40,460 bases of DNA from a virus, in UHGV virus genome UHGV-1390708. One strand, given 5' to 3'. A program made the translations under genes and the position numbers. Positions 7,098 to 38,565 of this stretch are shown one piece after another. The notes under the pieces were generated by a model that worked only from the letters and a program-made list of their open reading frames with translations, had not been told where the DNA came from and did not search any database. The first letter of the stretch is position 1. Every line of letters starts with the position of its first letter.

Positions 7098-8066
7098 TTA
7101 GTAGGTTATTTTTGTTGCGAATACTTCGCCTTTTACGATGGCTGTTATGATATTTTTAGCAACATCTTCTGATGCGCCAACCTTGATAAGGTCAGCAAGT
7201 ATTTTGTTATTTACTTCTTTCCGGTGAGCTTTATCCTTTGCTCTACGCTCTTCTTCGTCCTTGATTCTTTTTTCTTCTGCTATTCTGGCTTGCTCTTTTG
7301 CTTCAGCCTCGCGACGGATTCGTTCAGCCTCCTCCTGTGCTTTTCTGCGTTCTGCTTCAATTGCTGCCTGCTTTTCTCTTTCAGCTCGTTCTGCTGCCTC
7401 TTTTGCTTCGCGCTGTGCTCGTTGCTCGGCTTCAATGCGTTCACGCTCTGCACGTTCCGCTGCGGCCTTAGCTTCTGCTTCTCGCCTTGCTGCTGCTTCA
7501 ATTTCGGCTTTTGCCTTTGCTTCGGCTTCTGCTCTGGCTTTCTCTTCAGCTTCTCTTTTTAAGCGTTCTTCATGCTCTCGCTTTTCCTGCTCCGCTTTGA
7601 GTCTTGCCTCTTCTCTTTGGCGGTCAAATTCGCGATCCATCAAAATCGCTATTTCATGGTCAGACTCAATTTGCTTTGCGAGAGCTTCAGCTGCTGCCTT
7701 AGCTTCTTCTTCGGCTTTAATCCGTGCCTGCTCCTCCTCATAATCAGTAAGAGGCTGGCGCGCCTTGGCTTTCAGTTCATCAAGGCGATCGCGCACTGTC
7801 TTGCGGTTGGCATCAATTAGCTTTGGAATTTCCTTCAGTTCAGCAACAAGGTCTTTGCCAAGACCATCGAGATATGTTTTCGTCTGCGCAACTTTATACG
7901 CCAGAGAAGCGATCTCCTTTCTGCCCTTTGCCGTTGTGATATCAGGCACAAAGGACATAACTTCACGTTCAACCTTTTGAAGGATTTCTTCAATCTGGTC
8001 GGCAGACTGAAATACAGTCATTGCATTTGCTTTTTCAATAACAACTAAATCTGTTACTTCACTCAT
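7098..8066 (-). CDS. Large coiled-coil protein, 322 aa from MSEVTDLVV. It has a globular N-terminal domain (possibly DUF1351-like), a long E/A/K/R low-complexity helix and a short C-terminal domain.
   Basis: GGAGG Shine-Dalgarno sequence before the ATG at 8066. About 150 aa of EAEAKAKAEIEAAARREAEAK-type sequence. Confidence 0.6.
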   Translation of the reverse strand: MSEVTDLVVIEKANAMTVFQSADQIEEILQKVEREVMSFVPDITTAKGRKEIASLAYKVAQTKTYLDGLGKDLVAELKEIPKLIDANRKTVRDRLDELKAKARQPLTDYEEEQARIKAEEEAKAAAEALAKQIESDHEIAILMDREFDRQREEARLKAEQEKREHEERLKREAEEKARAEAEAKAKAEIEAAARREAEAKAAAERAERERIEAEQRAQREAKEAAERAEREKQAAIEAERRKAQEEAERIRREAEAKEQARIAEEKRIKDEEERRAKDKAHRKEVNNKILADLIKVGASEDVAKNIITAIVKGEVFATKITY

Positions 8067-8077
8067 ATATCCTCCGT

Positions 8078-8107
8078 CAAAAAAATTGCCCTCACACTGG
8101 AGGGCAA
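8078..8107 (-). terminator. Intrinsic terminator inside the pL operon (tL-like).
   Basis: Minus-strand hairpin TTGCCCTC-CAGTGT-GAGGGCAA followed by TTTTTTT. Confidence 0.7.
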
Positions 8108-8241
8108 AGAAGATTTCCAATAATCAGAACAAGTCGGCTCCTGTTTAGTTACGAGCGACATTGCTCCGTGTATTCACTCGTTGGAATGAATACACAGCGC
8201 AGTGTTTATTCTGTTGTTTATGCCAAAAATAAAGGCCACCA

Positions 8242-8570: not shown

Positions 8571-8843
8571 TCATCTTGCTGTCAGTTGTTTTGATTTCCG
8601 GTAGCCTGCCGCGTAAATGGCTACGTTTGGCAGGCAAATACTTCCACTGCATTCATCTGCCTTCTTGCAGCGAAGGCTTCCGAGTGATGCTGCTTTGTCT
8701 GCTCTGACGCAACTAGAGATCTTTAGCGCAATTTTTCGCGCAAGTCTCTGCTCTTGCATTGCCTGTTCACGTTGAGCCTGCCTGCGTGCTCTGCGGCGAT
8801 TTCTGGCGTTATCGTCAGCCAGATATGTAATGACTACTGTCAT
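8571..8843 (-). CDS. N: N-family transcription antiterminator, 90 aa, with an N-terminal arginine-rich motif.
   Basis: Arginine-rich motif DDNARNRRRARRQAQREQ. The C-terminal AIYAAGYRKSKQLTAR resembles the P22 gp24 / phi21 N tail. GGAGG Shine-Dalgarno sequence. It is the first gene downstream of pL and nutL. Confidence 0.8.
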   Translation of the reverse strand: MTVVITYLADDNARNRRRARRQAQREQAMQEQRLARKIALKISSCVRADKAASLGSLRCKKADECSGSICLPNVAIYAAGYRKSKQLTAR

Positions 8844-9200
8844 GTTGACCTCCGATGATTGACTTTGGTGGTGACGCGCCGGGTGCTTATCTTCCGGTTG
8901 CCGTCGTGCAGCTGCACTTCACGTCACCCCAAAGCCAACTACTCTTTGACTCACACTCTCGCAGTGAGCGCGCTCATGCCCTTGAGTCTCTGTCGCTTAT
9001 TAGCCGCTGATAACCGGTGCGCGTCTGGCATTCGCGCTGCCTTTCCGGAGCATGTTCCCTTATTTACCCTCACATCGGTCTGCTAAACCTGCTCGCCATT
9101 ACGCGACTCGGGGCAGCATCATTACTGCTGCATTGCCTTTCGGCTGCGGTCTAACCGCGTTAGTGCACCATTACGGCACCTCCTGTTTGGTTAAACTCAG

Positions 9201-9242
9201 TTCCCGCATTTCGGCGGGACAATCCCATCAATGTTAAAGAGC
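9201..9242 (-). promoter_or_regulatory. nutL: nutL: boxA GCTCTTTAACA (9232-9242) plus a boxB hairpin (9201-9220).
   Basis: The minus strand reads GCTCTTTAACA-N12-GTCCCGCCGAAATGCGGGAA. The same boxA and boxB recur at nutR. Confidence 0.75.
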
Positions 9243-9288
9243 CTGCCAATCTGTTCCGTTTGGCTACCAGCGTCCTGCTGATGGCTTA

Positions 9289-9374
9289 AAGATAACTTAG
9301 GTTATAGGTGTGGTCAATAACCTAATTTATATTTTGTGGTAAATAAGTTATAAGTGATGGATAACAAAGGTATT
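9289..9374 (-). promoter_or_regulatory. OL: pL (-35 TTGACC at 9312-9317, -10 TATCTT at 9289-9294, 17-nt spacer) with OL operators.
   Basis: Operator sites are ATAACttagGTTAT (9292-9305), ATAACctaaTTTAT (9317-9330) and a degenerate ATAACaaagGTATT (9361-9374). Confidence 0.7.
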
Positions 9375-9496
9375 TTATTTTTGTAAATGTTGCTGATTGA
9401 TTGGTGTTTGAGGGCTTGCGTGCGGGGTGAAGGTGTTACCTTTGGCTTGATGCTTGTCTATGATGATGATGGGTGATTGGGTGGTGAACGGCAGGA

Positions 9497-9530
9497 AAAG
9501 AAAACCCGGCGCTGAGGCCGGGTGTTTTTA
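9497..9530 (-). terminator. Intrinsic terminator after the cI-linked moron. The hairpin has T-runs on both strands.
   Basis: CCCGGC-gctgag-GCCGGG. The minus strand continues TTTTCTTTTCC. Confidence 0.75.
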
Positions 9531-9824
9531 GTCTTTTCTTTTGCTTAGCATTTCGTCGATTTCTAAGTCAATACGATATTGATCTATTGCTTTTCTCTCG
9601 TTTGGGGTTGGTATTTTATACTGTTCAATTAGATCTGTTGTGTATTTTATTTCATCTAATGTGATTTTTATATCAGAGAGAATCTCTTTTATATCAATTA
9701 GATGCTCTTCTTCTTTTGCGCGATTAGAGCTATGTTCAATCACTTGAGATAGCTTTTTACTAATGCTTAGCAAAACAAAAAGAATGATGACCAAAACAAC
9801 AACAAAAACTATCAGAAATTCCAT
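9528..9824 (-). CDS. Membrane-anchored coiled-coil protein, 98 aa, family unknown. A lysogen-expressed moron in the rex position.
   Basis: GGAGGG Shine-Dalgarno sequence 3 nt before the ATG, 40 nt after the cI stop. N-terminal TM segment EFLIVFVVVLVIILFVLLSI followed by a charged helical region. Clearly AT-rich relative to the flanks. It has its own terminator. Confidence 0.75.
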   Translation of the reverse strand: MEFLIVFVVVLVIILFVLLSISKKLSQVIEHSSNRAKEEEHLIDIKEILSDIKITLDEIKYTTDLIEQYKIPTPNERKAIDQYRIDLEIDEMLSKRKD

Positions 9825-9864
9825 TATCCCTCCGCACTTCCGTAAGTCTTCTTCTGATTATCGG

Positions 9865-10572
9865 TTACCAACTATGAGACGACCAGAATACTCTGCCAAT
9901 AATCCTTACGGTTTCATGAAATTCATCTCTATCCATTACTTCATCCGGGTACTCTTCGCGATTTATTGATCTGATTATCACCGATGTAGGGGTGGCGATT
10001 AATGTTTTTACTCGTAACAAATCAGACTGGCAAATAGCGTAGGTTTTACCATCTCTGATGGTGGTATCTTGCGTGTTAACACCAACAACATCGCCATCGT
10101 GAAGCGTTGGTTCCATGCTTTGCCCTACAACCCTAACTAGCTTGGCTGATCTTTCAGATACTCCCATCTTTTTCAGATAGTGCTTTCTGAAAACCAAAGA
10201 GAACTCCGATGATTCCTCTAGCTCGCAGCTACCGCTTCCAGCTGAAAGCGAAACGTTAAGAAGAGGCAACGCAACAAACTCGTCATCGTTTCTTTTAATG
10301 TCTTCCCATACCACAGCTTTTAAAGATGACTCACGGACATTGGATGGTTCTTCATGTGCACCATCCCTCATTTCACCAATACCAGAACTAAGCCATTCAG
10401 GGCGCACTTTTAAAGCATTGGCTAATTCAACCATCTTGCGAGATCCGTTTGTTTTACCGGACGACATCTTCTGTATGGCTGGCTGAGATATTCCAACCAT
10501 GTCAGCAAGCTGTGATTGTGATACCCCTGCTGAGCTCATGGCTGCATTTAGTCTTTCTGCGAATGTTTTCAT
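9865..10572 (-). CDS. cI: CI-type prophage repressor (HTH_XRE plus S24 LexA-like autopeptidase), 235 aa from MKTFAERLN.
   Basis: HTH segment SQSQLADMVGISQPAIQKMSSG. Ala-Gly candidate cleavage site in LSAGSG. Ser in GQSMEPT and Lys in LRVK. The track start at 10602 is a TTG codon inside an operator. Confidence 0.85.
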   Translation of the reverse strand: MKTFAERLNAAMSSAGVSQSQLADMVGISQPAIQKMSSGKTNGSRKMVELANALKVRPEWLSSGIGEMRDGAHEEPSNVRESSLKAVVWEDIKRNDDEFVALPLLNVSLSAGSGSCELEESSEFSLVFRKHYLKKMGVSERSAKLVRVVGQSMEPTLHDGDVVGVNTQDTTIRDGKTYAICQSDLLRVKTLIATPTSVIIRSINREEYPDEVMDRDEFHETVRIIGRVFWSSHSW

Positions 10573-10584
10573 ACCCACAAATCT

Positions 10585-10650
10585 ATAACTACGGTTATCC
10601 AAAGTAAAATAACAAAGGTTATTGCTATTTTTTATAACTTGAGTTATCTT
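10585..10650. promoter_or_regulatory. OR: OR: three 14-bp operators ATAAC-N4-GTTAT interleaved with pR and a candidate pRM.
   Basis: Perfect sites at 10585-10598, 10609-10622 and 10634-10647. pR has -35 TTGCTA (10622-10627) and -10 TATCTT (10645-10650), 17-nt spacer. Candidate pRM -10 is TATAGA (minus strand, 10582-10587), 9 nt from the cI ATG. Confidence 0.75.
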
Positions 10651-10683
10651 TGGTTATAAGTAATGACCACAAGAGGTATGCTC

Positions 10684-10908
10684 ATGAATTTAGTAATTCA
10701 ACGAGCCTTGAAAATTGTCGGTAGCCAAAAGCGCCTTGCCGACAAGTGTGGTGTAACGCAGCCAGCAGTACACAAATGGCTGAAAGGCGGGTTGGTCTCT
10801 CCAGAGAAAGTTACCGCCATCGTTAACGCCACTGGAGGGCAGATCAAGGCTTACGAAATTCGCCCCGATTTGCCACACCTGTTTCCAAAACCGAATCAGG
10901 CAGCATAA
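10684..10908 (+). CDS. cro: Cro-type HTH repressor, 74 aa from MNLVIQRAL.
   Basis: AAGAGG Shine-Dalgarno sequence 7 nt upstream of the ATG at 10684. HTH segment QKRLADKCGVTQPAVHKWLKG. It is the first gene after pR. Confidence 0.8.
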   Translation: MNLVIQRALKIVGSQKRLADKCGVTQPAVHKWLKGGLVSPEKVTAIVNATGGQIKAYEIRPDLPHLFPKPNQAA

Positions 10909-10915
10909 GTAACAC

Positions 10916-10960
10916 CGCTCTTTAACAGTCATGGTCCTCATTCCCGCCGAAATGCGGGAA
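10916..10960 (+). promoter_or_regulatory. nutR: nutR: boxA CGCTCTTTAACA plus boxB hairpin TTCCCGC-CGAAAT-GCGGGAA (10941-10960).
   Basis: Read directly. The boxB sequence is the same as at nutL. Confidence 0.75.
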
Positions 10961-31889: not shown

Positions 31890-33305
31890 ATGGCTACGTG
31901 GCAACAGGGTATTAATTCTGGTGGTTTTCTGGCTGGCATCGGTACGCAAAATGAGAATGCGCCAAAGGCAAGCGACATTAACGCAACGCTTGGTCTGATC
32001 CGCGAAAACAATGAACTGGCTCGCTCAGGTGCAAATAACGTTGGTCTGACCGCGTTACGTGGTCTGGCTGGAGTTGCTGATATTTATAAGCAGGAACAGC
32101 AACAGAAAGCGATTAATGCGTTCAATAAGGTTCATGCTGATGCATGGGCTTCTGGTGATCCATCGGGACTATTTAAGTTTGCCAAGGAAAATCCAGCGTT
32201 TGTTGCGCAGGCACAACAGGCGTTTTCCGGTCTTAATGAGCAGCAACGCAACGATATGGGCGATTTAGCCATGAGGGCTAACGTCGCTCTTTCTCAGGGA
32301 CCGGAAGCCTACAGTAAATTCATTACTGACAACAAGGACAGGTTAAATCGCGTTGGTGTTAATGCTGACTGGATGATTCAGACAGGTATCCAGAATCCAG
32401 AGCAGCTATCACACATGCTGACTACTATGTCTCTCGGTGCGCTTGGACCAGAAAAGGCGTTTGCTGTTCAGGACAAGATGGCTGGTCGTGAGATTGATCG
32501 CGGAAAACTTGCAGAGACAATCCGCAGCAATCAGGCTGGTGAAGCACTTCAGGCGAGAGGGCAAAACCTTTCCTATCAGTCAGCAATGACTGGGCACAAT
32601 ATCGCAGCACAACGCTTGGCTCTGGATCAGCAAGAGTTCGGGTTTAAGATGCAGCAAGCGCAGGAAAAGGCTCAGCAGTTGATTAGCGAAGCACCTAAGC
32701 TGTCAGTAAACATGGAAAAAGGCATCGAGACGGCTGTAAACAATGCTACAGCATCATCAAACTCAGCCAATTCTATGAGTGCGCTTGCTCAACAGTTCAG
32801 AGCAGAAAAACCAACGACAGGTTTGTTCGGTAACGCACAGAACATGTTCGCAAAACTTACCGGAAGCGATACAACATTGCGTGATTTGCGCATTCGCCAA
32901 AATGCCCTTGTTAACAGTCAGGTTCTTAAATTCCTACCTCCCGGCCCAGCAACGGATAAAGACGTTGAGATCGTTCGACAGGGTGCGCCAACTGACATGG
33001 ATAACCCTGAGACGGTCGCAAGATGGCTTGATGCAATGGCAAACCTTGAGCGACGAAACGCGCAGTTTAATGAGTTTAAAGCCGAGTGGATGAGCGCGAA
33101 TGGCAACCCTGGACAATCGCGTAATGGCGGTCAGATATTGGGGTTGGATGTTAAAAAAGGTGAATCATTGGGGAGTGCCGTTAAGCGGTATATGTCAATG
33201 AATACTGACGCAGCACCAGCGCAAGATTCGACACCTTCAGGAGAAACACCGAATCAGGTTGGATCATATACCTCAAAATCAGGCATTCAATTTACGGTGG
33301 AATGA
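31890..33305 (+). CDS. Ejection protein, P22 gp20-like, 471 aa.
   Basis: Synteny and size. Confidence 0.75.
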
Positions 33306-35428
33306 TGAAAGTAACTGCAAACGGTAAGACATTTACCTTCCCTGATGGTACGAGCACGGAAGATATTGGCACCGCCATTGATGAGTATTTTGCTGGTCAG
33401 GCTGTTCAGCAACAAACAGTTAATCAGGACAATAATGCACCAACACGGGAAGAACCATCATTGATGCAACAAGCTGGCGATTGGCTCACTGGTGGTCAAA
33501 GTGCAGGGCAAATTGCAGAACAGGCTGGTCGTGGTCTGGTAAACATACCATTTGACGTATTGCAGGGTGGCGCAAGTCTGATTAATGCAATCAGCCAGGG
33601 GCTTGGTGGCCCCAAGGTTTTGGATGATGTTTATCGCCCTGTCGATCGACCGACAGACCCTTGGGCGCAAGCCGGTGAAACAATTGGTGGGTATCTCCTG
33701 CCAATTGGCACAGCGGCAAAAGTTGCTGGAGCGCCAGCAAAGCTCGCAGGAGACATCGGTTCCGCAGGAAACATGATTGCAGGTTCTCTTGCTGATGCTG
33801 CAAATCAGGAGGGTGATTTTGCACAAAATGCTGCCATTAACGGTGGTATCAATATTGGTGCTCAAGGCGTTCTTTCAGGTGTCGGGCGCGTTATTGCGCC
33901 AAGGGTTTCACAGGCTCTTGGTGGTGCAGCACTGAATTCTGCTAATGATGTTTCTAGGATGGCAAAGTCAGGTGCTGGGCGTCAGTCAATTGCCAGTCAG
34001 GCCGCTAATGTGTCCGAAGATGTAGCAAAAGCGGCTGAGTCTGCTGGAATTGATATAAACGCATTAACACCAGGAATGCGATCTGGAAGTCGTGGAATTG
34101 CACAAGCCGAAGGCGCATTGGCATCAACACCTGGAATTGTTCAGGACGCCCATCAGGCAGCATTTAACGAAATATCATCAAAGTTAAGTCGAAACCTTGA
34201 TGAATTTGGGGCCACATCTGGAACGGCATCAGAAAAAAGTGCGGCTATAAAACAAAGGATTCTTCAAAATCTTGATCAGATGAAGGATGCCGAGCGCGCG
34301 GCATGGGATGACGTGCGGTCAACAATGCCAAATCAAAAAGCAAGAATGCTAAATGGTAATGCCGTTATTCAGGCAGAGCGATCTGCTGGCATACCGCTTA
34401 CTCCTGAAATGAAACAGTTTGTTCAGGCAAACAATCAAGGTGGAGTAACATTTGATGGCATGAAAGCATGGAGAGCGAAATTTGCTGATGCGGAGCAAAA
34501 ATATAAGCGTAGCGGAGAGGCAAATGCGGCAAGGAGAGCAGGGGAAATACGCCGGGCAATTACTGATGATATGCGCACAATGGCGGAAAACGGCGGATTT
34601 CTTGATGACTGGCAGAAAGCTAATGATCTGTCTAAAGCGAGGTTATCAGCACAAGAGAGTGCAGAGTCTGTTTTCGGGCGTGATTTGGCAACAGATGCAC
34701 TGATTACGAATGGAGTAAAATCCCTTCAATCATCGTCAGCTAAAGGTCTTAATGGTCCTGCTGGATTCCATTCTATGATCCGCGCGCTGCCAGAATCAGA
34801 GCGTGTTCCTGCTATTTCATCAATGTTGCAAGATGCTATCTCGCATGGTGTACGTGGTGGCAAAGCTGATGCAGCAGGAATTAACCATATCGCAGAGATA
34901 CTGACTCCACAAAATGTAAAAGCCATTAGCCGATATTCCTCAGAGCTTGGAAGAATTGCTGATGCATATGGCACTCTTGCAAGAGCAGCAGTGAAACCTC
35001 AGCAGTATATTGAAAGAACAGGTAGAACTGCCAATGTACTACGCGATCTGGATGCTGGTTTATCCAACGTCACATCAACAGTGTTAAATGCAATTGCCAA
35101 TTCAACATCAGGTGCCATTGTTGGTGGCGCTGGAGGAGGCATTGCAGGCGCTGCCGCAGGTGCTTTAGTTGGCGCTGGGTTAAAAGGCGCTGTATCTAAA
35201 ATTGCCACCACACGTAGTGGTCGGTATGCGATAGAGAAAGCAGTTCAGGAAGCAACTAAAGCAGTAAGAGCAGGCGGAAGCAAAGAAGCATTAGCGGCGG
35301 CGGAACGCAGATTTATGGCAAATAAGGCCGCCGTAAAAGCAATACGCGAGGCACTAGGAAACGAAGAGTTCCAGCGTTTAGCAAGGGCTGGAATTGTGGC
35401 ATCGCTTAGCGGAATGGCACAGGAGTAA
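33302..35428 (+). CDS. Ejection protein, P22 gp16-like, 708 aa.
   Basis: Synteny. A Gly/Ala-rich membrane-active segment near the C-terminus. Confidence 0.7.
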
Positions 35429-35758
35429 TTAGTCATCCATGGATGGATTGAGCTTATCTCGTGTTGATGTGGCAATTTTACCAACATTTTTCAACCAAGA
35501 TTTTAAGAAGGATATGTCGTCCTTAATATCATGAATATCCTCATTCTTTATACGATCAACCTTATCCTCTAGGCTCTCTATAGAACGCTCAATGCTAGAC
35601 AGAGAGATTTTTAAGTCTCCTTGCTCACGTTCCAGTGAGGATTTGAGAGCACAATATTCGTTTTCTAGAATTCCTATTTTTTTTGTTAGAGAGTGCATTC
35701 GATACTCATACACCAAACTAGAAACGACTAATGCAGCCAACAGAAACCATTCAAGCAC
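35429..35758 (-). CDS. Membrane-anchored coiled-coil protein, 109 aa, in the sieA position. GTG start.
   Basis: AAGGAGG Shine-Dalgarno sequence 5 nt before the GTG at 35758. TM segment LEWFLLAALVVSSLVY followed by heptad-like charged helices. AT-rich. The longer track ORF would overlap the next gene. Confidence 0.6.
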   Translation of the reverse strand: MLEWFLLAALVVSSLVYEYRMHSLTKKIGILENEYCALKSSLEREQGDLKISLSSIERSIESLEDKVDRIKNEDIHDIKDDISFLKSWLKNVGKIATSTRDKLNPSMDD

Positions 35759-36427: not shown

Positions 36428-36462
36428 GCAAAAATTAACCCACCTTCAGGTGGGTTTTTTGT
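36428..36462. terminator. Bidirectional-looking hairpin terminator at the 3' end of the first Mnt-like gene.
   Basis: AACCCACC-ttca-GGTGGGTT flanked by T-runs on both strands. Confidence 0.6.
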
Positions 36463-36766
36463 TTAGCAGTTCTCTCAACTTTTCGTTCTGCTCTCTGAAC
36501 TTTTCCTGTATTTCTTTTTGCATGGCGATAACCTGGGCTTGAAGTTGAACTAGCGCATCAACATTTAGCGGAACCGAGACGCTGTTGATTTTATCTGCTA
36601 TTTCCCCGAGTGTATTTTCTGCATTCAAGGCATCTTCCAGTATCTGAACAATCTCTGAGTTCATTGATCTGCCGTTACGTTTGGCTCGTTCAGCTATAGC
36701 ATCCCGCATTCCTGCAGGAAGCCTGATATTGAACCTATCCATTTCATGACTAGGGAACTTGCTCAT
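36446..36766 (-). CDS. Mnt-like ribbon-helix-helix repressor with a C-terminal coiled coil, 106 aa.
   Basis: FNIRLPAGMRDAIAERAKRNGRSMNSEIVQILEDAL is an Arc/Mnt RHH signature. It is divergent from the Arc-like and ant genes. Confidence 0.75.
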   Translation of the reverse strand: MSKFPSHEMDRFNIRLPAGMRDAIAERAKRNGRSMNSEIVQILEDALNAENTLGEIADKINSVSVPLNVDALVQLQAQVIAMQKEIQEKFREQNEKLRELLNKKPT

Positions 36767-36808
36767 ATGACCTCAACGTAAAGATGTTCGCTAAACAATA
36801 GCACCAAC

Positions 36809-36850
36809 TTGACATCAAAATAAATGGTGTTAAATTGGTTCTAGAACCAA
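36809..36850 (+). promoter_or_regulatory. Pant-like promoter (-35 TTGACA at 36809-14, -10 TAAATT at 36831-36) with a 16-bp perfect palindromic operator, TTGGTTCTAGAACCAA (36835-36850).
   Basis: Read directly. The spacer is 16 nt, and the palindrome overlaps the -10 element and the start site. Confidence 0.65.
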
Positions 36851-36877
36851 GTTGGTATCATTATAGGAGGATTACTT

Positions 36878-37051
36878 ATGAAAGATGTGCTTTACACAGG
36901 TCGTAAAAGTCAAAGTTTTCAGCTTCGTTTGCCAGCGCGAATGAAGGAGGAGATTAGACGTGTTGCTGAAATGGATGGAATTTCTATCAACTCTGCGATT
37001 GTGCAGCGACTGGCTAAAAGCCTGAGAGAGGAAAGAGCTAATGCCCAGTAA
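36878..37051 (+). CDS. arc: Arc-like ribbon-helix-helix repressor, 57 aa (under 60 aa, so absent from the track).
   Basis: MKDVLYTGRKSQSFQLRLPARMKEEIRRVAEMDGISINSAIVQRLAKSLREERANAQ. AGGAGG Shine-Dalgarno sequence upstream. Confidence 0.75.
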   Translation: MKDVLYTGRKSQSFQLRLPARMKEEIRRVAEMDGISINSAIVQRLAKSLREERANAQ

Positions 37052-37120
37052 AAATAGTGAAGCCCAGCAGTGCGCGAACACAAACTGGGCCTCTATGTCA
37101 GTAACCGTATGCAAGGAAAC
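37052..37120 (-). ncRNA. Candidate sar-like antisense RNA covering the ant ribosome-binding site.
   Basis: Minus-strand promoter with -35 TTGTAA (37148-53) and -10 TATTCA (37126-31), 16-nt spacer. The hairpin GCCCAG...CTGGGC (37062-37090) is followed on the minus strand by a T-rich run. Confidence 0.4.
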
Positions 37121-37124
37121 TAAC

Positions 37125-37751
37125 ATGAATATTGTAGCAAAATCAGATTACAACTTCCACGGAGTTGAGTTGGTGCCCACCCGTGATATGCATGGTGTTT
37201 GGTTTACATCATCTAATATTGCATCTGCACTTAAATACGCAAATAGTCGTGCAGTAACAATGATTTATAACAAGTATAGCGATGAGTTTAGCGCCGGAAT
37301 GACTCAGGTACTCGAAGTGAGTACCTCAGGAAATTATCGCAAAAAAGTGCGAGTTTTCTCACTACGCGGTGCCCACCTAATCGCGATGTTTGCTCGCACT
37401 CCGGTAGCCAAAGAGTTCCGCCGCTGGGTGCTGGATATTTTGGATCGGCAGGCAGAATGCTCACCGATTGCAAAACAGTTTACTGACGAAGAACTGGTTA
37501 ATCTCTGCTACTTACAATTGTGGATGGAGAAGAGTCAACAAATGTGCAAACACATCTACCCAGGAATGAAGCAAATTGGTTCTGAGCTTTCAGGAAGGAT
37601 TTACGATATTGCATATGAGACTCGCTACATGTCAGAAGAAACCAAGAAATCACTTCTTCGTGAAATGAAGAATCTTGATACCAACAATTTTGTCGTAAAG
37701 AACGCTCAGCCAATACTGGCAAAACTGCGCGGCGAGGAATGGATTCATTGA
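37125..37751 (+). CDS. ant: Antirepressor with a Bro-N domain, 208 aa from MNIVAKSDY.
   Basis: FHGVELVPTRDMHGVWFTSSNIASALKY...LRGAHLIAMFARTPVAKEFRRWVLDIL is Bro-N. AAGGA Shine-Dalgarno sequence. Confidence 0.75.
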   Translation: MNIVAKSDYNFHGVELVPTRDMHGVWFTSSNIASALKYANSRAVTMIYNKYSDEFSAGMTQVLEVSTSGNYRKKVRVFSLRGAHLIAMFARTPVAKEFRRWVLDILDRQAECSPIAKQFTDEELVNLCYLQLWMEKSQQMCKHIYPGMKQIGSELSGRIYDIAYETRYMSEETKKSLLREMKNLDTNNFVVKNAQPILAKLRGEEWIH

Positions 37752-37770
37752 TTGGTGCGCCGGACGGCGC

Positions 37771-37801
37771 AAAAAGAAAACCGCCAGTGTGCTGCTGGCG
37801 G
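37771..37801 (-). terminator. Minus-strand-oriented hairpin plus T-run between the two ant-like genes.
   Basis: The minus strand reads CCGCCAG-cagcaca-CTGGCGG followed by TTTTCTTTTT. Confidence 0.4.
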
Positions 37802-37839
37802 CCTATGTCACACCCTTACTACCACATAAGGAATGCCTA

Positions 37840-38565
37840 ATGACTTTTAAGAATGTAGCAAACATCGGATCCGTTGTCACGGATAAAACCATTGACAGCC
37901 AAAGTCTTCTGATGATGGTTAATGAAGCTCGCAAGTTATGTGGAGAGCCATCAGTACGTAACAACAAATTCATCGAGAAAATTGAGGATGAATTGGAGGG
38001 CGAGACCTACACAAAAAGTGTAGGTCGGAAAAACGGGGCTGACATTGATGTTATCTCCATGACTATCAAGCAGGCGCTTCGTGTTGCTGCTCGCGAATCT
38101 AAAGCAGTTCGCCGAACACTTGTAGACAAACTTGAAAGTATGCAGGAAGCACACATTAAAAGCGGTAAATCAGCGAGTGGACTTGTTGAGTATCGTCAAG
38201 CGCGAACATTGAAAATGACGGTTGAAGCTGTTACCAATCTGTTCGATCTGATGCCAAATCTTGCGCCTGAGGCAAAGCAGACTGCGGCAGCAAGCATAAT
38301 CAACCCGATCGTTGGTTTTAATGCAATACCTCTTCCAGCAATAGAAGAGCATTACTACTCAGCAGGGGAGGTTGCAGAGCAGCTTGGAGTAACGGCCAAC
38401 AAGATTGGTCGCATTGCTAACGCAAACAACCTCAAAACTGAGCAGTACGGCAAGTTCTTCCTAGATAAATCTGCGCATTCCAGCAAACAGGTAGAGGCGT
38501 TCCGCTACAATGCGGAAGGTGTTAAAGCACTACAACACCTGATTCATGGGAGTAATGTTGCATAA
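37840..38565 (+). CDS. Second antirepressor-like / phage regulatory protein, 241 aa from MTFKNVANIG.
   Basis: AAGGA Shine-Dalgarno sequence. The C-terminal YYSAGEVAEQLGVTANKIGRIANANNL is HTH-like. The family assignment is uncertain. Confidence 0.4.
   Translation: MTFKNVANIGSVVTDKTIDSQSLLMMVNEARKLCGEPSVRNNKFIEKIEDELEGETYTKSVGRKNGADIDVISMTIKQALRVAARESKAVRRTLVDKLESMQEAHIKSGKSASGLVEYRQARTLKMTVEAVTNLFDLMPNLAPEAKQTAAASIINPIVGFNAIPLPAIEEHYYSAGEVAEQLGVTANKIGRIANANNLKTEQYGKFFLDKSAHSSKQVEAFRYNAEGVKALQHLIHGSNVA

Follow-up and report, generated by a model that had tools for sequence, protein, structure and literature searches.

Which function does a small, AT-rich gene serve for a temperate phage when it is placed directly behind the gene of the lysogeny repressor? 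This question is raised by ORF98, an open reading frame (ORF) of 98 codons in the virus genome UHGV-1390708 (40,460 nucleotides (nt); "the window" refers to this whole stretch of DNA), which is the genome of a P22-like/lambdoid temperate phage. An earlier note, made from the sequence alone, had singled out ORF98 as a candidate for an undescribed prophage-encoded defence or exclusion factor. Our analysis identifies ORF98 as an uncharacterised cargo of a prophage repressor operon, i.e. an element of a known kind, and reveals that its relatives are linked to lysogeny repressors across the family. This linkage is a new observation and represents a positional signal stronger than that of a single occurrence.

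ORF98 in the slot between cI and the left operator

Re-reading of the sequence bore out the position of ORF98 given in the earlier note, including the gap of 40 nt after the cI stop codon and the strong GGAGGG Shine-Dalgarno sequence. Its placement in the slot between cI and the left operator (OL) was likewise confirmed by the gene order cro/right operator (OR)-cI-ORF98-terminator-OL/left promoter (pL)-N, in which ORF98 is distal to cI, as in the lambda RexAB system. The region comprises the following elements.

10663-10908, plus strand: cro-like gene
~10606-10679: OR, with operator-like repeats common to OR and OL
9865-10572, minus strand: gene of the cI-type prophage repressor, the upstream gene of the operon, with HTH_3 and Peptidase_S24 domains (Pfam and PHROG matches)
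9825-9864, minus strand: spacer between cI and ORF98 of exactly 40 nt (read from the sequence), with the GGAGGG Shine-Dalgarno sequence at 9828-9833
9528-9824, minus strand: ORF98 (from the ORF listing), gene of a predicted bitopic membrane protein of 98 amino acids (aa), a member of PHROG 18389
9524-9862, minus strand: exchangeable cargo cassette of 339 bp, consisting of spacer and ORF98
9496-9523, minus strand: intrinsic terminator closing the repressor operon, potentially bidirectional (scan match and fold)
9286-9382, minus strand: OL operator cluster (repeats common with OR) and pL-like promoter (promoter-like site TTGACC-17-TATCTT, 9317-9289)
9201-9219, minus strand: nutL boxB-like hairpin
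8571-8843, minus strand: N antiterminator gene, which bounds the slot on its downstream side (PF25694, E = 2.7e-17; phrog_271)

The cI coding sequence, which is annotated in RefSeq with an identical product of 235 aa, ends with the stop codon TAA at 9867-9865, and ORF98 extends from its ATG start codon (9824-9822) to its TAA stop codon (9530-9528). The GGAGGG sequence (9833-9828) ends 3 nt ahead of the ATG, and a scan of the spacer revealed no terminator-like site between the two genes. A promoter search returned one weak site (TTGGCA-17-CATAGT, 9899-9871, 9 of 12 matches), the number of sites being 3 compared to 4.3 expected by chance, and an independent promoter within the 3' end of cI was not distinguishable from chance.

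Linkage of the family to diverse lysogeny repressors

ORF98 matches phrog_18389 over its entire length, its residues 1-98 being aligned with profile positions 1-98 (E = 1.8e-61). This PHROG is without functional annotation, so that membership provides a name and no explanation. The family members are stand-alone proteins of 94-126 aa with the same architecture, mostly from Enterobacterales, and their identity to ORF98 ranges from 97% down to ~26-30%. The genomic contexts of family members were inspected over this whole range of divergence. In the 13 Enterobacterales-type contexts the family gene occurs on the same strand 0-54 nt downstream of a lysogeny repressor gene, which encodes an S24 cI repressor in 12 of them (the window type and eleven more: L003/4, L005-7, L010, L011/50, L012, L013-15/53, L054, L016/17/52, L018/19, L051 and L077-80) and, in the remaining one, a Mnt repressor of the P22 type, with the sieA slot as the site. 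All S24-linked contexts lie within a canonical cII-cro / cI-X-(N) immunity region, with gaps to the repressor gene of 0, 0, 1, 1, 12, 14, 15, 15, 20, 23, 40 and 54 nt, the shortest being those of 0 nt in L018 and L077 and of 1 nt in L013 and L054. The S24 repressors compared are just 16-40% identical to the window cI, and their cro partners differ as well.

The Mnt-linked relatives, which have 30% identity to ORF98, are encoded on two IMG/VR contigs in the immI/sieA region of P22-like phages and not in immC.

L055, 2919-3269: distant ORF98 relative
L056, 2413-2736: distant ORF98 relative

These genes follow a Mnt/Arc ribbon-helix-helix repressor gene after 9-36 nt and have the gene of a gp16-type DNA-transfer protein on one side and that of a P22-type tailspike on the other, and the L055 protein still matches phrog_18389 (E = 2.4e-7). 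In P22, the interval between gene 16 and the tailspike gene is occupied by sieA, orf59a and mnt (PMC10883804).

Since cI and Mnt are structurally unrelated, but are both maintenance repressors made in lysogens, lysogen expression is the feature that they have in common. As judged from gene order, we conclude that the family tracks lysogen-specific expression and not a particular repressor protein or fold. ORF98 would almost certainly be co-transcribed with cI from the repressor promoter (pRM or PRM; pRM-cI-ORF98-terminator) and would thus be made in lysogens; distances to cI as short as 0-1 nt, as seen in relatives, suggest that the promoter of the repressor is used. Translation of ORF98 would start from its own Shine-Dalgarno sequence or be coupled to cI.

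Selection and composition

The pairwise ratios of nonsynonymous to synonymous substitution rates (dN/dS) between ORF98 and its relatives amount to 0.07-0.23, with dS up to ~1-1.9 (saturation). Together with the conservation of the family down to ~26-30% identity, these ratios support the earlier description of ORF98 as a gene, and judging by them, ORF98 is a real gene under purifying selection. The opposite explanation, i.e. a chance AT-rich ORF or a decaying remnant in the spacer of the immunity region, could draw on the short, low-complexity product with its internal tandem repeats. It is extremely improbable in view of these ratios, of the length, architecture and four invariant residues that are kept across genera at 26-30% identity, and of the strong Shine-Dalgarno sequence in ORF98 or the start/stop coupling to cI in relatives; the conservation data can be taken to have effectively refuted it already.

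With a GC content of 30.3% (26% at third codon positions), compared to 43% in cI, 50% downstream and 47.8% in the whole window, ORF98 represents the most AT-rich stretch of its length, ranking within the lowest 0.03% when all 297-nt windows of the 40 kb are compared. The same applies to the family, the genes of which have 30-41% GC versus 43-53% in their flanks, whatever the phage background. AT-richness is therefore a stable family trait, which marks ORF98 as foreign or cargo-like and not as recent; being constant across the backgrounds, it does not date the acquisition. Of the suggestion that ORF98 is a recently acquired AT-rich moron, the composition and the insertion of a cargo were thus retained, and the recency was not.

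Architecture of the ORF98 protein

The hydrophobic N-terminal anchor and the subsequent heptad-like helix that had been described from the sequence were both recovered, and a conserved C-terminal motif can be added.

9762-9818, minus strand: N-terminal transmembrane (TM) anchor (FLIVFVVVLVIILFVLLSI), codons 3-21, mean Kyte-Doolittle hydropathy 3.67
9618-9710, minus strand: heptad-repeat helix, codons 39-69, with 21-nt tandem repeats
9546-9656, minus strand: conserved C-terminal motif IKYTTDxIExYK(L/I)PxPxERKxIDQxRIDxEIDxML, codons 57-93, consisting of helix, KIPTP turn and helix

None of 16 family members contains lysine or arginine ahead of the TM segment, and 1-4 such residues follow it. By the established positive-inside rule, an N-out/C-in orientation is predicted from this distribution. 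ORF98 is accordingly predicted to be a single-pass inner-membrane protein of which only 2 residues face the periplasm and ~75 acidic, all-helical residues face the cytoplasm. In the 16-member alignment, the TM segment is conserved in hydrophobicity alone, not in sequence, and has no polar face. A cleavable signal peptide was rejected, considering that a positive n-region is lacking, the hydrophobic core comprises 19 residues, and positions -1/-3 are not conserved as small residues in the relatives.

Within residues 38-69, 78% of the a/d heptad positions are hydrophobic, compared to 26% of the other positions, and this stalk probably oligomerises. The 21-nt tandem direct repeats within ORF98 (D3/D4; 9666-9707 for D3, and 9762-9803) encode the heptads DIKEILS-DIKITLD-EIKYTTD as well as a portion of the TM segment, pointing to growth of the helix through duplications of seven codons. 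Further downstream, Y69, P72, D81 and E88 are invariant across the 16 members (26-76% identity) and also in a profile of the C-terminal domain. The AlphaFold2 model based on the 16-sequence alignment (mean predicted local distance difference test score 77.6) consists of two helices, residues 2-68 and 74-97, which are joined by a turn at 69-73 (KIPTP).

An exchangeable cargo cassette in front of a shared terminator

About 60 E. coli genomes encode a cI that is 79-99% identical to that of the window but lack ORF98, and their similarity to the window ends exactly at the cI stop codon. In prophages with 94.5% and 99% identical cI, other genes are located in place of ORF98, which sets the boundaries of the exchanged segment at 9863 and 9523. 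One of them, FDAARGOS_944 (cI 94.5% identical), carries a DUF3024 gene (PADLOC candidate PDC-S43) and a gene of 177 aa as cargo and keeps the same terminator, while O145 strains (cI 79% identical) have no same-strand cargo. This survey of the slot in related prophages substantiates the view of ORF98 as an inserted cargo, and by comparison of these loci ORF98 and its spacer make up one cargo among several that alternate at a recombination hotspot. The interval between cI and N is a documented mosaic hotspot, which holds rexAB and bstA in other phages (PMC8585504).

The terminator consists of the stem ACCCGGC/GCCGGGT at 9523-9504 with a 6-nt loop, followed by TTTCTTTT at 9503-9496, and is potentially bidirectional because of the A-run on its other side. 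Its fold of -19.8 kcal/mol (z = -3.8) was not reached by any of 200 shuffled sequences, in agreement with the hairpin and T-run that had been noticed between ORF98 and OL. ORF98 had also been called self-terminated, which does not hold, since prophages with the same cI and a different cargo retain the hairpin (98% in L067 and 90% in L065). In addition, near-identical hairpins lie after the Citrobacter homologs. The hairpin thus appears as the shared end of the immunity operon and a conserved flank of the slot and is not a private terminator of ORF98. We take it to be the functional counterpart of the lambda immunity terminator, which keeps PRM transcripts out of pL/N.

With regard to a moron in the Juhala/Hendrix sense, as summarised in PMC3594210, two of the four criteria apply to ORF98, namely insertion polymorphism (the gene is present in some and absent from other closely related phages) and deviant composition (30.3% GC versus 43-50% in the flanks). 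A terminator of its own is not among them, since the hairpin at 9504-9523 is located outside the exchanged segment, and the candidate for a promoter of its own is the weak site at 9899-9871. The block OL-ORF98-cI-OR-cro is 99.4% identical in the Shiga toxin (Stx) phage Stx1a_10051, the structural genes of which do not match the window. ORF98 therefore travels with the immunity module and not with a virion type.

Two further observations concern the borders of the cassette. Directly after the cI stop codon, L067 contains a relic encoding ...QWPEETFG* (~2298-2325), which presumably corresponds to the C-terminal end of a lambda-type cI and indicates that the 3' end of another repressor gene came in along with this cargo. 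For the 40-nt spacer of the window, an origin from the 3' end of a lambda-type cI is not claimed, given that 21-204 of 2000 shuffles reach its score. On the other side, a small gene on the opposite strand (68-74 aa; DUF2767 in L010) is often located between cargo and OL, as in the following loci.

L003, 5324-5530: convergent small gene
L005/L007, 5324-5548: convergent small gene
L010, 2402-2611: convergent small gene
L066, 3445-3654: convergent small gene

In loci with ORF98 homologs this convergent gene ends near the same hairpin, which fits a bidirectional use of the terminator.

Distribution and relatives of the family

Of 5426 complete E. coli genomes, 109 carry the ORF98 gene, in each case on the chromosome, and the carriers include the Stx1 prophage region of O26:H11 11368, in which the protein is annotated as a hypothetical protein (WP_000394868.1). 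The locus is 100% identical in O26:H11 11368, ExPEC XM and PU-1. The exact ORF98 protein is encoded on 603 contigs. Named members originate from Escherichia, Citrobacter, Yersinia, Enterobacter, Serratia, Klebsiella and Mangrovibacter, and one from Pelagicoccus; their public names all read "hypothetical protein", except for one automatic mis-annotation. Among 1.84 billion cluster representatives there are 13 family representatives, and the JGI metagenomes yielded 7 loci, almost all of the E. coli type.

No relative of ORF98 was detected in Pfam, NCBIfam or PADLOC, where only sub-threshold matches to DUF5385, ZorB/MotB and MscL occurred, which are due to hydrophobic or coiled-coil composition. 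This agrees with the statement of the earlier note that the family could not be recognised. A profile search against PDB sequences returned designed coiled coils only, and the structural comparison that had been proposed, i.e. Foldseek with the model against PDB and BFVD, gave no match and thus no relative with a known function. The profile of the C-terminal domain retrieved 43 proteins of 73-116 aa, which are all stand-alone, with no fusion to another domain among them. By these sequence comparisons, the family is uncharacterised and without detectable relatives of known function.

Comparison with known repressor-operon and exclusion systems

A parallel in position is provided by lambda rexA-rexB, which shares with ORF98 the slot past cI and before the immunity terminator and OL/pL, the presumed co-transcription in lysogens, and a membrane component (RexB). 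RexB is a multi-pass protein. RexAB represents a pair of sensor and channel, in contrast to a single 98-aa protein with one TM segment, and no homology of ORF98 to RexA or RexB was found in Pfam, PADLOC or PHROG. RexB has been described as an ion channel (PMC8585504).

P22 SieA, like ORF98, is a small inner-membrane protein expressed from the prophage and contains a conserved cytoplasmic motif, and the L055/L056 relatives are encoded beside mnt in the very interval between gene 16 and the tailspike gene that holds sieA (PMC10883804). SieA, however, comprises 162-164 aa with three predicted TM segments (four in types B/C) and the motif FxRYPxEAxxFNK (PMC10883804), whereas ORF98 has 98 aa, one TM segment and another motif; homology to SieA was not detected, and the PHROG search returned phrog_18389 only. 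The target of SieA, i.e. the P22-type ejection proteins, is moreover tied to the virion type, while ORF98 crosses virion types with the immunity modules. Membership in SieB is not indicated either, as ORF98 has no match to PF14163 at E<=1; L010 carries a separate SieB gene beyond N.

HK97 gp15, which blocks genome entry, is a small, prophage-expressed inner-membrane moron product of deviant composition and is related to the YebO protein of the host; its gene is located in the tail operon and has a promoter and a terminator of its own (PMC3594210). ORF98 is likewise a small prophage membrane protein with deviant composition, but it is encoded in the repressor operon, shares the operon terminator and has no YebO match in Pfam. 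The abortive-infection protein BstA is placed, with striking conservation, directly past diverse prophage repressors, presumably sharing their promoter, and is followed by a Rho-independent terminator (PMC8585504), which resembles the placement of ORF98 after diverse repressors. BstA has been described as moving to the places where phage DNA is replicated, and a self-immunity element, aba, belongs to the system (PMC8585504); ORF98, on the other hand, is a small membrane protein without a match to the BstA model in PADLOC. Hex of phage 434, which was first seen as heterologous exclusion of P22, is the second product of the PRM transcript past the repressor; its ORF of 158 aa apparently overlaps cI, and it inhibits RecA-stimulated cleavage of the 434 and P22 repressors (PMC3564112). 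No membrane segment is mentioned for Hex (PMC3564112), in contrast to the TM anchor of ORF98, and the linkage of ORF98 to unrelated repressors including Mnt argues against the mechanism of Hex. On the basis of these comparisons, we assign ORF98 to the class of repressor-operon accessory genes and regard it as distinct from RexAB, SieA, SieB, BstA and gp15/YebO.

Possible functions of ORF98

We tentatively propose that ORF98 is a lysogen-expressed membrane accessory protein, the most likely role of which would be heterotypic phage exclusion; this role is speculative and is deduced from position alone. As the promoter-distal gene of the maintenance-repressor operon, ORF98 would be expressed together with cI in lysogens, and its product would insert into the inner membrane and oligomerise in the cytoplasm through the heptad stalk. 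Since the TM segment is conserved in hydrophobicity only and the hairpin in sequence, the anchor most likely just places the conserved hairpin (YK(L/I)P...ER...D...E) at the inner face of the membrane, where the hairpin could act as the business end that binds a conserved host or phage component. The lysogen might then be protected by disturbance of a membrane-proximal early step, which could keep genome entry from being completed or affect a host factor of the inner membrane that the invader needs; alternatively, ORF98 could trigger abortive infection at the membrane. This proposal is based on the precedent of rexAB, the 933W kinase gene, hex, bstA and sieA, which are located in PRM-operon or mnt-side positions, and on the fact that one alternative cargo of the slot (DUF3024, PDC-S43) is a defence candidate. 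PRM co-transcripts of lambda, 933W and 434 carry exclusion genes (PMC3564112).

Several points weigh against an exclusion role. Two distant homologs, one on a Rep3 plasmid-like contig and one from Pelagicoccus, have no recognisable repressor context. The PADLOC search revealed no defence-family similarity (the best match, ZorB with E=0.01, is not significant), neither SieB nor YebO matched ORF98 in Pfam at E<=1, and ORF98 showed no similarity to other Pfam families. The family is also rare, with no relative in one genome per species of 185,579 species and a single phage record, that of an Stx1a phage, among 50,697 (tblastn with ORF98 and two relatives). Some entry blockers face outward, and a single-pass protein that is turned towards the cytoplasm would be atypical among them. 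The known entry blockers named in the literature considered are multi-pass proteins, as illustrated by the three predicted TM segments of P22 SieA (PMC10883804). The slot also holds functions other than defence, given that 434 Hex stabilises the repressor and is reported to confer stability on the lysogen and not only to exclude phages (PMC3564112). Finally, the literature search found no paper on the family and no experimental or transcript data. We consider it conceivable, though rather doubtful, that ORF98 constitutes a new single-gene prophage defence, in which a membrane-tethered cytoplasmic helical hairpin acts by a mechanism unrelated to those of Rex, SieA, SieB, gp15 and BstA, and which is kept in the immC cI or immI Mnt operons of lambdoid/P22-like phages across Enterobacterales.

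Instead of excluding phages, ORF98 could modulate host physiology (lysogenic conversion) by tuning an inner-membrane machine of the host, e.g. a transporter, a sensor kinase, FtsH/HflKC or the divisome, and thereby alter fitness and not phage sensitivity. An anchor conserved in hydrophobicity only and a conserved cytoplasmic peptide are found in many small bitopic regulators, the distant homologs outside prophage repressor contexts would fit such a role, and moron products serve host fitness as well as exclusion (PMC3594210). We nevertheless regard it as unlikely, because the Enterobacterales-type contexts examined are all prophage immunity operons, with no chromosomal stand-alone gene among them, the species-representative genomes contain no relative, and the gene neighbourhood points to no partner.

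The prophage itself could be the beneficiary if ORF98, like Hex, adjusted lysogen stability, be it by damping RecA-dependent cleavage of the repressor or through FtsH-dependent turnover of CII/CIII at the membrane. Position and presumed PRM co-transcription are those of hex, the deletion of which raises spontaneous induction (PMC3564112), and a cytoplasmic domain at the membrane could conceivably reach membrane-bound FtsH. However, the linked S24 repressors compared show just 16-40% identity, and the linkage extends to Mnt, which lacks the S24 autocleavage domain, so that the conserved function is unlikely to consist in direct contact with a specific repressor; prophages with the same cI also do without ORF98, which renders such a modulator improbable. 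No more probable is a pore-forming effector of abortive infection similar to RexB or a holin, the helix of which would oligomerise once the cytoplasmic domain senses a phage cue. Oligomerisation is suggested by the heptad stalk, and the rex slot is known for membrane-depolarising abortive infection (PMC8585504), but the TM segment consists of aliphatic and aromatic residues only, lacks a polar or glycine face and is not conserved in sequence, and there is neither a partner gene for a sensor nor similarity to RexB in Pfam and PADLOC.

Further elements of the window

Outside the repressor operon, the following elements were noted.

424-1617: integrase gene
31890-35428: genes of gp20- and gp16-type ejection proteins
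36446-38565: immI-like region with an Arc/Mnt-type repressor and anti-repressors
35429-35758, minus strand: gene of 109 aa in the P22 sieA slot, flanked by the genes of the gp16 homolog and of the Mnt-like repressor, with a GTG start after AAGGAGG (phrog_5962, function unannotated)
8943-9165, minus strand: conserved, apparently structured RNA element of ~210 nt
7098-8120, minus strand: ORF of 340 aa in the pL operon with a long Glu/Ala/Arg/Lys-rich helical repeat region (phrog_1376/21365, no assigned function)

The 109-aa protein of the sieA slot is built like ORF98, with an N-terminal TM segment and a coiled coil, but homology between the two was rejected (hhalign probability 5%).

Identical 19-nt hairpins (TCCCGCCGAAATGCGGGAA), for which shuffled sequence gave 0 matches, are located just past pL (9201-9219, minus strand) and just past cro (10942-10960, plus strand) and presumably serve the N protein of the phage as boxB elements of nutL and nutR. 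Directly after the nutL hairpin, the leader between pL and N contains an insertion of 251 nt (8949-9199), which is absent from the otherwise near-identical Stx1a_10051 phage. The ~210-nt RNA core is 77-92% identical in phages of Escherichia, Hafnia, Klebsiella and Providencia. Most of the contexts examined are leaders of antiterminated operons, in which the core follows pL/nutL or separates Q from the holin gene. In Escherichia phage vB_EcoS-733R5 and Providencia phage PSTCR7lys, it is located in an intergenic region with no recognisable N or Q gene. RNAalifold predicted a multi-helix fold from an alignment of 10 sequences, supported by compensatory double changes in 14 of the 49 pairs. The element matched no family in Rfam 15 and is apparently undescribed.

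Significance of repressor-operon cargo

Few phage genes are expressed in every lysogenic cell. Those co-transcribed with the repressor belong to this small group and have repeatedly proved to be exclusion or abortive-infection systems, as in the case of rexAB, the 933W kinase, hex and bstA. The linkage to unrelated repressors raises the value of ORF98 as an experimental target, and as a small single gene with defined cassette boundaries it is readily testable by clean deletion or swap. If a new defence by a membrane-tethered hairpin were true, heterotypic phages would be blocked at the inner face of the inner membrane. About 2% of the complete E. coli genomes carry ORF98, which is also present in the Stx1 prophage of O26:H11 strains, and a role in phage exclusion or lysogen stability, if true, would therefore have a bearing on the ecology of Shiga-toxin phages.

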